Shown piece after piece: positions 10,553 to 41,374 of a DNA stretch of 41,374 nt. This stretch comes from Nostoc sp. DedSLP01. GTDB taxonomy: Bacteria > Cyanobacteriota > Cyanobacteriia > Cyanobacteriales > Nostocaceae. The translations under genes were made by a program, and so were the position numbers. The notes beneath the pieces are model-generated. The model had not been told where the DNA came from and ran no database searches. It worked only from the letters and a program-made list of their open reading frames with translations. The stretch is from contig JAVRCJ020000054.1 in NCBI GenBank assembly GCA_034530875.2, forward strand, positions 1-41,374, given 5' to 3'. The number at the start of each line of letters is the position of its first letter. The first letter of the stretch is position 1.

Positions 10553-12442
10553 ATGACAAATTTGCAAAAAAAAGCGTTGAAAAAACAGGGGTCATCAAAG
10601 CGTGTTGCTTGGATTGGTGGGCTAGCAGCTAGCTTGATGATGTTGCCAGGAATTTTGGGGGGTACTCCTGTTTTGGCACAAAAGGCAGAGAGTAACTCTT
10701 TAGAGTATGGTGAGTTAATTGAGAAAGCGAAGGCTGGAGAAATCCAAAAAGTTGAGCTTGATGAAGCCGAACAGATAGCAAGGGTTTATCTCAAGGGACA
10801 AAAAGAAAATACACCACCGCAACAGGTGAGACTTTTGGCGCAAAACACAGAATTAATTAATATTCTCAAAGATAAGAATGTTGATTTTGGTGAGATTTCT
10901 TCTGCCAATAGTCGGGCTGCTGTTGGGTTATTAATTAATCTCATGTGGATTTTGCCGCTGATAGCATTAATGCTATTGTTCCTGCGTCGTTCTACCAATG
11001 CTTCTAGCCAAGCGATGAATTTCGGTAAATCCAGAGCTCGTTTCCAAATGGAAGCCAAAACTGGCGTGAAATTTGAAGATGTCGCTGGGGTTGAAGAAGC
11101 CAAAGAAGAACTGCAAGAAGTTGTTACTTTCCTCAAACAGCCAGAAAGATTTACAGCGGTAGGCGCACGTATTCCCAAAGGAGTGCTATTAATTGGCCCT
11201 CCTGGTACAGGTAAAACTTTACTAGCAAAAGCGATCGCTGGTGAAGCGGGCGTACCATTCTTTAGCATTTCCGGTTCGGAATTCGTGGAAATGTTCGTTG
11301 GTGTAGGTGCATCCCGCGTGCGTGACTTATTTAAAAAAGCCAAAGACAACGCACCTTGTCTGATTTTTATCGATGAAATCGACGCCGTAGGCAGACAACG
11401 CGGTGCTGGTATCGGTGGCGGTAACGACGAGCGAGAGCAAACCCTCAACCAGCTGCTGACCGAAATGGATGGTTTTGAAGGTAACACAGGCATCATCATT
11501 ATTGCTGCCACAAACCGCCCCGATGTATTAGATGCAGCGCTGCTCAGACCAGGACGCTTTGACAGACAAGTGATGGTGGATGCGCCAGACTTGAAGGGAA
11601 GGCTGGAAATTTTGCAAGTCCACGCCCGGAATAAGAAGATCGATCCTAGCGTATCATTAGAAGCGATCGCTCGCCGCACTCCTGGTTTTACAGGCGCAGA
11701 CTTAGCCAACCTACTTAACGAAGCTGCCATTCTCACAGCTAGAAGACGCAAAGAAGCCGTCACCATCTTAGAAATCGATGATGCAGTAGATAGAGTAGTT
11801 GCAGGTATGGAAGGCACGGCCTTAGTAGACAGCAAGAGCAAGCGCTTAATTGCCTACCATGAAGTTGGACATGCCTTAGTCGGCACATTACTCAAAGACC
11901 ACGACCCCGTGCAAAAAGTCACACTCATACCCCGCGGACAAGCACTAGGCTTAACTTGGTTTACTCCCAACGAAGAACAAGGCTTAATTTCCCGTTCCCA
12001 ACTCAAAGCACGCATCACAGCCACATTAGGCGGTCGCGCAGCCGAGGAAATAGTCTTTGGCAAACCAGAAGTGACCACAGGTGCAGGAGATGACCTGCAA
12101 AAGGTAACAGGAATGGCACGCCAAATGGTCACGCGGTTTGGAATGTCAGAATTAGGCCCCTTGTCCCTAGAAAATCAGAGTGGAGAAGTATTTCTAGGAC
12201 GCGACTGGATGAACAAATCAGACTATTCCGAGGAAATTGCCGCTAAAATTGATTCCCAAGTCCGCGAAATCGTCAACCATTCCTACATCAAAGCAAAAGA
12301 ACTATTGGAAGAAAACCGCGTACTTTTGGAGCGTTTAGTAGACTTGCTAGCAGAACAAGAGACAATTGAAGGCGAATTATTCCGTAAAATTGTTGCCGAA
12401 AATGCTCAGATAGTGGATGAAAAAGTGGCTGTCTCTCATTAA
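10553..12442 (+). CDS. ftsH: ATP-dependent zinc metalloprotease FtsH (probably FtsH1-type)
   Basis: Walker A GPPGTGKT, Walker [35 protein letters not shown] zinc motif and N-terminal TM segments. Confidence 0.97.
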
Positions 12443-37354: not shown

Positions 37355-37533
37355 TCAGAATTCAGAATGGGCTACGCCCCGCTGCGCTAACAGAATTCAG
37401 AATTCAGAATATTTAAACTCAAAAATCAAAGCTAATACCAAAGACCATTTGTAGAGACGCGATTCATCGCGTCTTGATTCATCGCGTTTTGATTTGCGGC
37501 GCGGTCATTCCCATGCAGAGCATGGGAACGAGA
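37355..37533. repeat. Cluster of small dispersed repeats between tpiA and folP
   Basis: CAGAATT heptamers, GTAGAGACGCGATTCATCGCGTCT palindrome at 37451 with a partial tandem copy, and TTCCCATGCAGAGCATGGGAA palindrome. Confidence 0.75.
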
Positions 37534-37542
37534 AAAGGTACA

Positions 37543-38274
37543 TCAAAGTGATTTATAATTCACGATCCGGGCAAAACTCTCAGCTTCGAGACTTGCTCCT
37601 CCCACTAAAACGCCATCAATTTCTGGTTGAGCCATGATTTCATCAATATTATTCGGCTTGACCGAGCCACCATATTGAATTGATACATTTGGATTGCTCA
37701 ATTGACTACGAATTAAGCCAATTATTCGATTAGCTTCGACGGCTTCACAAGTATCACCAGTGCCAATTGCCCAAATTGGTTCGTAAGCTATCACCAAATT
37801 TTGTTGATCGATATCTACCAAACCTTTGTCGAGTTGGAGACTAATCAGTGATTCTGTTTCTCCCTTATCTCGTTGTTCTTTAGTTTCGCCAACGCACAAA
37901 ATTGGAGTCAAACCAAACCTTTGAGCTGTTCTGAGGCGCAGATTAACGGTGGCGTCTGTTTCACCGAAGTATTGACGCCGTTCGCTATGACCAATAATCA
38001 CAAAGCGCGCGCCAATTTCTGTCAGCATAGGGGCAGAAATCTCACCCGTGTAGGCTCCATATTCTTCCCAATGGACATTTTGCGCCCCCAGTTGTACGCG
38101 ACTACCATGTAAATTCCTCGACAAAACGCTGAGGTTAGTGAAAGGAGGGCACAATAGTACTTCACGTTCTTCAGGCGTTTCCTGTAGGTAGGGCAGAAAT
38201 CCTCGTAAAAAGTCTTCGGATTCTGCCTGGGTTTTGTACATTTTCCAGTTACCGGCAATAACTATTTTTCGCAC
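37543..38274 (-). CDS. tpiA: Triosephosphate isomerase
   Basis: [38 protein letters not shown] and LVGGASL motifs; GTG start at 38274 (TTG at 38289 is the alternative). Confidence 0.97.
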
Positions 38275-38315
38275 AGGTAATTTAGTCAAGATCTTAACGC
38301 TACTAGATGCATTTT

Positions 38316-39506
38316 TCAGTCTAGAACTTTTTGGGATGCAATCAGCATTTTAAATAAAAGCTTGACTGCTTTAATTGCTACACGCATTCTTACTAGCTTG
38401 ACCGGCTTACCGAATGACTTTTGAGTATCTAAGAATTTACCCAACTGTTTTAACAGTGGGTTTGTCCGACGGCGGGCGGGTTCGACTGCACTAAAAACCC
38501 ATTGCCAAAGCGATCGCCTACACAATGCAGAGCCACCGCTAACTTTAGACTTGGAGATATCACCGCTAGACTCCTGGGAGGGGGCAACGCCCAAAGCCTT
38601 CTGGAATCTCCTCAGCGACAAGTGGCGTTTAGTTGGTTTACCTGATTTTCTGCCTTTGCGAATCTTAATTTCAGGCTTACCATCTTCCCCTAAGAAATTT
38701 TCTAAGGGGAAGATTTGCGAGAGGATAACAGCTTGTACCCGGTTCCCAAAATTGAACTTTTTAAAAATCTCGCGGTAATTACGAAACCTCTCATCCATAA
38801 GGATTTGGAGCAATTCATCCTCTATTAGCTGTTCCTCGCGTTGCAAATTACAAATGCGCTGCGCGTGAAACCTAACCGAATCAGTTAACCCTAGTCCAGC
38901 GGTGGCAGCATAAATACGATCGTATTTTTTACTTTCCCTCTCCCCGGCTAACCATCCCCACATCAGTGGTACTTTTCCAGATCGGCGTTCTGATTGAACA
39001 AGTGCAATTTCTGGAAACTGCCAAGCTAAATCTTGTCTAGCGCGGTTGATGATTGGGGATTGTATTCGATTTAAGTGGTTAAGTCTAAGAACTAATTCCC
39101 TCATTCTCGAAACCAATTTGTCCTTAATTTGGACAAATCGACTTAATTCACTACCATAATCAAACTGGTAACAGGCAAGTGCTAGCGAGTCAGCGTCATC
39201 ATCTTTGTCGGGTAGACCAAGTTGATTTTCGCGGTAATTTCTCAGCTGCTTGTGTCCAACCAGACGAATTTCTACTCCAATACGGGTTAAGTGTTCAGTC
39301 CAAAACCTTGAATAGTTAACCCCAGTAGGTTCAATTATGGCAATTTCTGGCTTGAGTGCTATTAGCCCAGTTAACCCGGCGCAATTATTTTCAAACTTGT
39401 AAAATCGACATTCATAATAAAATTCTCTTGGAGATACGGGCTTTTCCAAAAGTAAGCAGCAAGAAACGCTAGACTTGGAAACATCCAACCCTACAACTCT
39501 AGTCAT
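38316..39506 (-). CDS. IS110-family DEDD recombinase/transposase (bridge recombinase), intact
   Basis: RuvC-like DEDD residues in GLDVSK, IEPTG and KDDDAD; coiled-coil linker; Tnp domain [11 protein letters not shown] with the catalytic Ser, G...CRRSL and GKPVK..RVAIK; GAGGAG RBS at 39515-39520. Confidence 0.92.
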
Positions 39507-39530
39507 TTTGTTTTCTCCTCTAGGGTGTTG

Positions 39531-39797
39531 ATTGTGTCAAAAAGCTTGTGAATCACCCAAAGGCCCGCACAGCCTGATTCAGTCTCAAAGCAATCCCAGT
39601 GCTGTAAACGCTGGGAGACACAATTAAAAAACACAGGAGTAGCCGAGCTTATGAAAAATGAAAAGCCATAAGCTTAATTCACTGTAAAAACCCTAAGCTA
39701 CTTGTGTTATTTGCGGAACTGTTTTGGACACAACCCGCGACTCTGGGTAATCCCAGAGTTTCGGCTACTGTGTCAGGTAGCCCGCGCATGTGGCGCG
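39531..39797 (-). ncRNA. Candidate bridge/seek-type guide RNA upstream of the IS110 recombinase
   Basis: Near-continuous stems: 39531-38/39617-24 enclosing 39549-55/39575-81 and 39594-99/39611-16; 39630-43/39697-708 enclosing 39646-53/39667-74; 39740-47/39752-59; 39763-68/39777-82; 39783-87/39793-97. The position matches the IS110-group non-coding RNA. Expression is not shown. Confidence 0.65.
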
Positions 39798-39831
39798 ATC
39801 GCAATTTGAAAAACTGCAATTCATCAGGCGG

Positions 39832-40062
39832 TTATTCAGTTTCAATTTTTGGCAGTGTTGAATTTAAAGTCTTGAGAATTTTTGATATATGTTCTTCAAC
39901 ATATTCATTTTCTGGAACGGTTTCTTCCTCAAAGTGTGAAATTTCCTCAATGAGTTGATTGAGTTGAGATTTGGCTTTTAATAACGTGTGATAAGTGATG
40001 TAATAGCCCCAAGATGGATCTGGTTCGGGAATGTTCTTAGTTTCGGAATTTTTATTAGTCAT
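39832..40062 (-). CDS. Small hypothetical protein (mobile-element cargo)
   Basis: 76 aa from ATG 40062, helical, 7 bp after the previous gene. Confidence 0.65.
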   Translation of the reverse strand: MTNKNSETKNIPEPDPSWGYYITYHTLLKAKSQLNQLIEEISHFEEETVPENEYVEEHISKILKTLNSTLPKIETE

Positions 40063-40069
40063 AAATTGT

Positions 40070-40354
40070 TTAAGCCTCACGTTGTTCTAGAAATTGCAAT
40101 GCACCTGCAAGAATTTCCATTCTTTTAATGTCAGTAAGCTCATAATCAGTCATACTGATTATTGGATAATCACGCCGTTTGTACCTTAATTTCAGATGCC
40201 TGATGTGCATGGGTGGATATCCAAACGCACCTGGAATAATTTGTTCGCGAACTATTAAAACTCTTTTCTCTTCTGGAATTTCTTCGGAAGAAAAACCGTG
40301 TTTAGCTTCTTTGTCTAAATCGTAATAAACGATGTAATCTATTTTTTTGCTCAT
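40070..40354 (-). CDS. Small hypothetical protein (mobile-element cargo)
   Basis: 94 aa; ATGA overlap with the upstream gene at 40351-40354. Confidence 0.75.
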   Translation of the reverse strand: MSKKIDYIVYYDLDKEAKHGFSSEEIPEEKRVLIVREQIIPGAFGYPPMHIRHLKLRYKRRDYPIISMTDYELTDIKRMEILAGALQFLEQREA

Positions 40355-40614
40355 CTTCGGTTTTTTAAACGGTGATTATTACAATTGCAACGTTGCTCTA
40401 GGAGTGCTATGGCATCAACCCAAGCTTGCATAATTACTGTGGCATTCTCGCGCTTAAAAGCTTGCTTATCGCCGTTATGCCAGGTAACGATCGCAACAGG
40501 ATAACCGTGTGTTGCCTCGTCATATTCAAGTTGGCGAATTTGGGCCAGATTTATCCACCCGGCGCTGGGTGTTTTGCAGCTAAACACAGATGGGGTATTA
40601 ATAATGGTGTGCAT
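40351..40614 (-). CDS. Small hypothetical protein (phage/plasmid-like; GWINLAQIR motif)
   Basis: 87 aa, translationally coupled to the next ORF. Confidence 0.75.
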   Translation of the reverse strand: MHTIINTPSVFSCKTPSAGWINLAQIRQLEYDEATHGYPVAIVTWHNGDKQAFKRENATVIMQAWVDAIALLEQRCNCNNHRLKNRR

Positions 40615-40690
40615 GGTAAACTAATGCATGGTGAGCAATCCTGGCGATCGCAACTCCTCCATCACAAGCAATGCGATCGCTAATATTCAG

Positions 40691-40894
40691 TTAAAAATCC
40701 TCAACCTCTTGTCCTTGTTGGGGTGCAGGATTGCGAACGGCACCATAAAGCTGACCACTAACAAATGACATCAAGTGCTTGGCTTCAATTGCTGGATCGT
40801 CGCCTTCCTCAATAGTTGCAGTAGCCTGGAAAGTTTCGTTTTCAAAATTTCCCAGGTTTTTGACCCGTTTGTAAGTAATGGTTTCGATTTTCAT
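40691..40894 (-). CDS. Small phage-like hypothetical protein (KNLGNFENE motif)
   Basis: 67 aa; I.Y.R..NLGN(F/Y)E.E resembles small prophage early proteins (from memory, not searched). Confidence 0.75.
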   Translation of the reverse strand: MKIETITYKRVKNLGNFENETFQATATIEEGDDPAIEAKHLMSFVSGQLYGAVRNPAPQQGQEVEDF

Positions 40895-40978
40895 ATTTGT
40901 GTGCTATTTTTTACGTGCGAGGTAGCAATCCACAAAAAGCGATCGCTCTTGCGTTCTCCTAGCGATCGCTTTTGAAAC

Positions 40979-41164
40979 CTACCCTTGATTAGCTGGTTGG
41001 GGTTGATTGTCGAAAATCACATTAAATACCCCACCACCCATGCGGAGAATGCTTGCATAAGCATCGGCATCAGAGCGAGTACGAAATCGACAAACGCAAA
41101 CATTCTCACCAGTGGGCTTGCGTTCAAAAATTGCCCACGGTCTAATCTCATCGCGGTAAGTCAT
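40979..41164 (-). CDS. Small cyanobacterial mobilome-type protein (PW...RFR.R.DA motif)
   Basis: 61 aa, MTYRDEIRPWAI..RFRTRSDADAY..VIFD; resembles a recurrent cyanobacterial small-protein family. Confidence 0.75.
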   Translation of the reverse strand: MTYRDEIRPWAIFERKPTGENVCVCRFRTRSDADAYASILRMGGGVFNVIFDNQPQPANQG

Positions 41165-41374
41165 AATTCAAAATCCAAATATTTTCAAAAAAGACCAGCG
41201 CAAGTTCTACCAACTAACGCTGGTTTCCCTATAAATCCAAAAACATCTGAAACTGCCAGTTCAACGGGTACTGACAGATGCGAATAATGGTTGGGTTAGT
41301 TAGTGAGAAATTGTGATTTTCGTCTAAAGAAACCTCCTACGAGACAACAAAACTTGTGGCGTAACAAGTGATGA

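Follow-up and report, generated by a model that had tools for sequence, protein, structure and literature searches.

The stretch analyzed here (the window) is the 41,374-nucleotide contig JAVRCJ020000054.1 of Nostoc sp. DedSLP01, and our subject is an IS110-family recombinase gene that lies just upstream of tpiA, together with the large element whose edge it occupies. We consider it likely, with a probability of roughly 0.85, that this recombinase serves as the RNA-guided integrase of a family of temperate, phage-like cyanobacterial elements of 13–17 kb, a reading that draws on comparisons at the sequence level. An earlier, sequence-only reading of the window had proposed that an IS110 recombinase and its RNA were adopted as a programmable integrase for a large cargo element and were not a stand-alone insertion sequence (IS). 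That proposal held up, in that the guides of the predicted RNA match the host target and the element's two ends, while right junctions in most related loci agree with their own guides.

The recombinase, its predicted bridge RNA and the element boundaries

The recombinase gene (38316–39506, minus strand) is an intact open reading frame (ORF) for a protein of 396 amino acids, and its stop codon lies 41 bp from the GTG start codon, at 38274, of the host triosephosphate isomerase gene tpiA (37543–38274, minus strand; Pfam TIM, E = 1.5e-91), which is downstream of the insertion site. The protein matches the NCBIfam model NF051857 (transpos_IS110_2) with 540 bits (cut-off 180); in Pfam, PF02371 scores above its cut-off and PF01548 just under it. 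Residues D8, E59, D103, D106 and S314 show no variation in 31 of 31 aligned homologs, which together with the NF051857 match places an N-terminal DEDD domain and a C-terminal conserved serine in the protein. A profile built from the homologs found the ISCro4 recombinase (PDB 9t56) at E = 1.4e-6; the single sequence had no match in the PDB, and searches of IMG/VR and of the INPHARED phages with the recombinase gave no match. By tblastn and blastn, the gene is present once in the 8.57-Mb genome.

Upstream of the recombinase gene, the predicted bridge RNA (39507–39738, minus strand, with a provisional 3' end) starts at a predicted ribozyme cut and consists of two stems with internal guide loops. 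The gap between the neighboring genes (39520–39800, minus strand) folds with a z-score of −4.8, and none of 200 shuffled sequences was as stable, bearing out the earlier description of a structured non-coding gap. Among 47 homologous sequences, 98.2% of the cells in the RNA stems are paired, and two-sided changes occur at 11 of the 29 pairs. Within the target-binding loop (39653–39686, minus strand), the left guide (39686–39678) equals the left target plus the core, and the right guide (39660–39653) is the reverse complement of the core plus the right target, so that the host target is read as 6 nt, GAA and 5 nt. The donor-binding loop (39550–39585, minus strand) has a left guide (39585–39578) that matches the right end of the element and a right guide (39558–39550) that matches, with one base bulged, the left end on another contig of the genome, C16. 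The two donor guides match the element ends, and the donor read by the RNA is thus a joining of the left and right end of the entire element. We also observed that position 39652, beside the right target guide, is occupied by a purine (A or G) at 33 of the 40 loci regardless of the target base and would pair with the donor T after strand exchange, which we take to resemble the handshake pairing of IS621.

The right junction (attR, the right attachment site; 38310–38323, minus strand) comprises the donor-left hexamer (38323–38318), the core GAA (38317–38315), which overlaps the recombinase stop codon, and the host target-right (38314–38310). These boundaries were set by comparison with empty sites and with C16, and they agree with the RNA guides. 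We compared the tpiA loci of 29 relatives. The four closest element-free relatives (G031, G015, G034 and G036) are cleanly empty: tpiA runs straight into sequence equal to position 10842 onward of C16, and the small ORFs found upstream of the recombinase in the window are absent as well. Aligning with such relatives, a check proposed with the original reading, thus defined both junctions, and none of these closest relatives has the small ORFs beside tpiA without the IS110 gene. The upstream neighbor of tpiA differs in the remaining 23 of the 29. Two further relatives, G022 (locus L037 on G022:C167) and G032 (L038 on G032:C91), retain just the 3' end of the recombinase gene and an identical right junction before tpiA, followed by unrelated chromosome; these are decayed insertions associated with rearrangement.

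Extending past position 41374, where the contig ends, located the far end of the element and phage-like genes on C16. From the stretch 41165–41374 the element resumes beyond an unassembled gap at C16:1–10841 (locus L071), a part that holds early genes, a tyrosine recombinase with a res-like site, a ten-gene virion-like operon and the left junction near C16:10842. As pieced together from these sequences, the element would span window positions 38315–41374, the gap and C16:1–10841, at least 13.9 kb in total, with the join between the window's contig (C54) and C16 being our deduction. The empty site has the tetranucleotide TGAA, which contains the recombinase stop codon, in common with the window's right junction and with the left junction on C16. 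In the family as a whole, the common core is GAA, seen at 13 of 13 reconstructed sites. Only 3–4 nt are common to the junctions, and there are no att repeats, terminal inverted repeats or target duplications. For 3 of the 12 other elements, the empty site is contiguous in the present genome (G000) with a 3-nt overlap; the others have rearranged or missing flanks.

Sequencing runs from one study, which is possibly the source of the assembly and hence not independent of it, give a hint of element activity. In run X3, unitigs break exactly at the core, with a depth of 198 on the host side (37448–38344) and 290 on the element side (38315–40618). Runs X1 and X2 have no unitig break at the core.

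The donor-left hexamer (38318–38323) and the host hexamer that it replaced (C16:10846–10851) both fit the −10 pattern TAnnnT and stand 41–50 bp before tpiA. It is conceivable, as a speculation, that insertion restores a promoter box ahead of tpiA. Four further elements are also located 28–96 bp before a same-strand host gene, and a promoter scan gave a result at the level of chance.

Guide and junction pairing across the family

Homolog counts, made at differing thresholds, were 29/61, 33/127 and 40/401 genomes. We examined 75 loci, a non-random set picked by full length and contig size. For a first set of 41 loci, the window among them, junctions were placed by donor motifs alone and then checked against each locus's own target guide; one broken gene was left unparsed, giving 40. 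The right junction equals the locus's own target guide exactly in 31 of the 40, compared with 15 of 1546 cross-pairings, and the 40 loci hold 35 distinct target guides. Of 18 loci with a candidate left-junction motif, 11 match their own guide at 6 of 6 bases and two more at 5 of 6, compared with 0 of 306 cross-pairings. In the matched elements, the left junction precedes the recombinase gene by 11.7–15.4 kb, and the ten elements found on single contigs are 12,953–17,174 bp long. Insertion sites are unrelated, with GAA as their sole common sequence. Because the elements carry different target guides and reside at matching sites, the attachment site appears to be specified by the RNA of each element. 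As to the checks suggested for homologs, the gene is single-copy in this genome, and the family's genes sit at element edges and are found at different host targets, most of them with matching guides.

A second recombinase clade, with about 40% identity, proteins of 454–468 amino acids and a different RNA scaffold, behaves similarly, with 9 of 12 right junctions matching their own guide (one locus unparsed). Donor-guide variants go along with donor variants, in a guide table that takes the best-matching site and is therefore biased to agreement. The predicted donor junction was sighted in G031, between two copies of 15,895 bp each that stand in tandem, and once in G032.

The Nostoc genome itself contains another family member, partly assembled (C101, C107, C109 and C110, and a run unitig at window positions 39723–39854) and with what appears to be the clade-2 RNA scaffold, as well as a short remnant of a clade-2 recombinase (G000:C21:141923–142129). 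In G297:C1, two related elements (L150 and L151) share one target guide at two sites, one of which has a single mismatch, a case of natural off-target tolerance. A shorter family member (L164) is integrated in the 178-kb plasmid CP150887.1. Insertions also hit genes that look PemK/MazF-like (G150a) and Rpn-like (G138), and one presumably lies within a cas1-like gene next to cas2 at L096/L097 (G150:C1, near 2.77 Mb). A crude scan of G000 for CRISPR-spacer-like matches to 11 elements found none.

Proposed guide RNA release, gene content and rival explanations

The recombinase gene closes a same-strand run of five small ORFs (39832–41164, minus strand), as the original reading stated. These encode 61, 67, 87, 94 and 82 amino acids (76 for the last if it starts at the ATG at 40062), are spaced with an ATGA overlap at 40351–40354 and one 7-bp gap, and have homologs that recur in other elements; they had no convincing family in Pfam or PHROG. 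The stop codon of the last of them abuts a type I hammerhead motif (39727–39831, minus strand), and the guide RNA lies directly 3' of the motif. In the window, CUGAUGA starts at 39827 and GAAA at 39762, the predicted cut falls after 39739, and the pseudoknot partner of loop II is at 39732–39727. The scan used the hammerhead core consensus, scoring the CUGANGA and GAAA core, an NUH site and three stems with stem I open. It covered 72 upstream regions, with two short ones set aside, and found the motif in 56; none of 1440 shuffles and none of the 72 reverse strands gave a hit, and random genome windows gave 2 in 1000. Covariation is seen in stems II and III, and in 34 of 51 cases loop II is able to pair, via several different sequence pairs, with the beginning of the released RNA. 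The distance from the cut to the recombinase start is mostly 230–260 nt (range, 173–279), and this holds for the two recombinase clades as well as for distant families. The bridge RNA of IS621 is described as being transcribed from a promoter that arises where the ends of the circle meet (PMC11208160). As the left-end junction is 11–16 kb from the RNA here, a junction promoter of that type cannot produce it, and release from the early transcript by self-cleavage suggests itself. From its sequence and position, the hammerhead is thus predicted to free the guide RNA from the early-operon mRNA.

Several observations weigh against the RNA-guided integrase reading. The window's element is split across two contigs, whose join could be chimeric given the other related element in the genome. 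In 9 of the 40 loci the right junction disagrees with the locus's own guide (one is cut by a contig end and one is off by a single base), as it does in 3 of the 12 of clade 2; these mismatches could stem from collapsed assembly, from guides exchanged among related elements or from integration in trans. The locus in G224 has no element genes upstream, the sole such case among 44 loci with at least 10 kb of upstream sequence. Among the element proteins, neither a capsid nor a packaging protein such as a terminase, a portal or a Zot-like ATPase was recognized. The hammerhead scan was failed by 16 of the 72 loci, and by our own count stem II is preceded by an insertion in about 24 of the 56 hits, including the window, where it consists of two hairpins. 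No hammerhead reached the Rfam gathering score: 11 loci had none at the threshold and the window copy had no match, and for one compact homolog Hammerhead_1 (RF00163) gave 18.5 bits with the core aligned (threshold, 34). Lastly, a third X3 unitig, of about 78-fold depth on the 30 bases shared by the other two, was deduced by depth arithmetic from the bin's total.

The scan failures and insertions bear on one alternative, namely that the hammerhead is real but has a general phage role, such as cutting early transcripts or controlling translation of the recombinase, or is inactive where it bears an insertion, with the guide RNA independent of it. Hammerheads that lie close to prophage integrase genes or flank blocks of genes are published (PMC3088659), and in G049 the junctions match even though the motif is absent. 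We nevertheless regard this as unlikely, if to be kept in mind: the cut keeps its narrow distance from the recombinase start, just before the guide stems, in both clades and the distant families, and the pseudoknot partner is inside the released RNA in 34 of 51 cases.

Somewhat less likely still is that integration proceeds as described but the elements are not viruses and would instead be non-viral integrative elements, satellites or IS110s that carry a very large cargo. The sequence-only reading had spoken of an element resembling a prophage or an integrative and conjugative element; the large element with phage-like gene content stood, and "prophage" remains our interpretation, no capsid fold having been recognized. 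A Zot-like ATPase and a small coat protein were not found among 17 C16 proteins and the five window ORFs, with part of the element unassembled. Two of the ten operon proteins were folded, the conserved candidates of 193 and 282 amino acids, both confidently (predicted local distance difference test scores of 88 and 93) and neither with a clear structural match. The 193-residue protein reached a best Z of 3.1 and had no Foldseek match at E 0.001, which is not evidence of a new fold, and an IMG/VR scan with its alignment found no match. The 282-residue protein (L071:8176–9024) reached a best Z of 5.6, with weak 2H-phosphoesterase-like rows for its C-terminal domain (root-mean-square deviation 4–7) that are under the level of trust; the Atlas held no usable match for it, an absence that again is not evidence of a new fold. 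On the other side, the C16 part carries the compact ten-gene operon with tail-fiber-like and collagen-repeat proteins, no relaxase or conjugation gene was recognized on it, the 193-residue protein has viral clusters nearest to it in the Atlas (no more than a lead, at a score of 0.83), and the second related element stands at 1.5–5.8 times host depth in the three runs. A phage is favored because of the tail-fiber and collagen similarities, the viral Atlas neighbors at the level of a lead, and the raised depth of the related element, and the element family is probably a virus.

The sequence-only reading noted no tyrosine or serine integrase at the tpiA boundary, and there is none; a tyrosine recombinase of 201 amino acids sits on C16, beyond the window and about 7 kb from the left end of the element. 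Each of the complete elements (11 of 11) has it, in a central position, with the catalytic domain only and 193–207 amino acids. Just upstream of it is a conserved palindrome with 13–14 bp arms and a variable spacer (C16:3601–3635), which is res-like. Given the central position and this adjacent site, our analysis points to the tyrosine recombinase as probably a dimer resolvase, not an integrase. Short tyrosine resolvases with an adjacent res site include TnpI/IRS and Cre/loxP, which the arrangement here resembles in that a palindrome with a spacer of variable length immediately precedes the recombinase gene; it differs in that the enzyme, a putative resolvase, is reduced to the catalytic domain. 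Among the 44 loci with at least 10 kb upstream, element genes occur in 43, the tyrosine recombinase in 42 and two or more element gene families in 42; at least one element gene family is found in 16 of 17 loci with 3–10 kb upstream, and a further 14 loci are shorter. That the tyrosine recombinase, so widespread and labeled integrase by PHROG, is the true integrase, with the IS110 gene a passenger IS at the element edge, is very improbable in view of its small size, central position and own palindromic site, of targets that have GAA alone in common, of two junctions that track the RNA guides, and of an RNA that reads a donor composed of the ends of the whole element. The junctions, with a core of 3–4 nt, thus do not have the appearance of a conventional integrase acting on att repeats. 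A stand-alone IS110 insertion sequence, with near-identical copies of 1.3–1.5 kb devoid of cargo, is ruled out by the single copy in this genome, the distant left junction and the element genes at 43 of the 44 long loci.

Under the RNA-guided reading, the element would excise as a circle, and the recombinase and RNA would recombine the donor junction of that circle with the target at the GAA core, both steps being modeled on IS621. The guide RNA would be transcribed inside the early operon and cut loose by the hammerhead directly 5' of it, and the internal tyrosine recombinase may resolve dimers at its adjacent palindromic site. For the fullest version of this picture the odds seem to us about even: a previously undescribed temperate cyanobacterial virus family without a recognizable capsid that has domesticated a bridge recombinase, matures its guide RNA with a self-cleaving ribozyme and retargets by 11 guide bases, leaving dozens of natural guide–target pairs for cargo of 13–17 kb.

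Significance and comparison with known systems

These results provide sequence-level evidence for a bridge recombinase that naturally moves an entire 13–17 kb element, in a phage-like family that would switch its attachment site via RNA and not via protein. The long-standing idea of IS110-type prophage integration becomes directly testable, with similar RNAs predicted in the Neisseria, Thermus and Acinetobacter cases discussed below. The ribozyme would solve the production of a guide RNA from within an operon. For the insertion of large cargo, the family is also a source of new recombinases whose core has three bases, and it brings an uncharacterized virion module.

The closest mechanistic parallel is with the IS621/IS110 bridge recombinases (Durrant et al. 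2024, PMC11208160), which share with the present system the DEDD and serine enzyme and an upstream RNA with target and donor loops. The layout of four guides that include the core, the discontinuous right donor guide and the scarless short core are also those of IS621. In contrast to IS621, however, the mobile unit here is 13–17 kb with about 20 genes, the core has three bases and is not a dinucleotide, the RNA is hammerhead-headed and 11–16 kb from the left end, and every element has its own target. ISPpu10 moves a 22.9-kb plasmid cargo according to a 2026 review (PMC13604230).

IS110-family genes are reported at the provirus end of the inoviruses Neisseria Nf and Thermus Zuza8, Zuza27 and phiOH16 (PMC11437467) and of the Acinetobacter inovirus Af1, which is 7.2 kb and encodes Zot and coat proteins (PMC11209303); Kawai et al. 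2005 is cited there. As in those inoviruses, the enzyme of the present family sits at the prophage end and is proposed to act in integration and excision. A guide RNA is predicted here, unlike in the inovirus descriptions compared, and unlike Af1 the element is twice as large, has no recognized Zot and has an extra tyrosine recombinase. Perreault et al. 2011 (PMC3088659; RF00163) describe type I hammerheads of prophages that lie near integrase genes or flank blocks of genes, and the motif here resembles them in its core, three stems, stem I/II pseudoknot and proximity to an integrase. It differs from them in being joined to a recombinase guide RNA, in the hairpin insertion before stem II in many copies, and in that the tested copies are under the Rfam threshold.

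A 2026 preprint surveyed 32,190 bridge RNAs and extended genes by just 1,000 nt for boundaries (10.64898/2026.10.21.760802); its main text, as far as accessible, does not mention phage, prophage or cyanobacteria, and its supplements or database may hold this RNA. Our literature searches, whose scope did not extend to supplements and most subscription papers, found no description of the element family, of prophage guide–target covariation or of any bridge RNA that naturally bears a ribozyme. What was already known is that IS110 genes have been proposed as inovirus integrases, that hammerheads occur near prophage integrases, and that the protein family has an NCBIfam model. What is new here, to judge by these searches, is the predicted ribozyme-headed guide RNA, the virion module without a recognized capsid, and guide–target covariation at such a scale.

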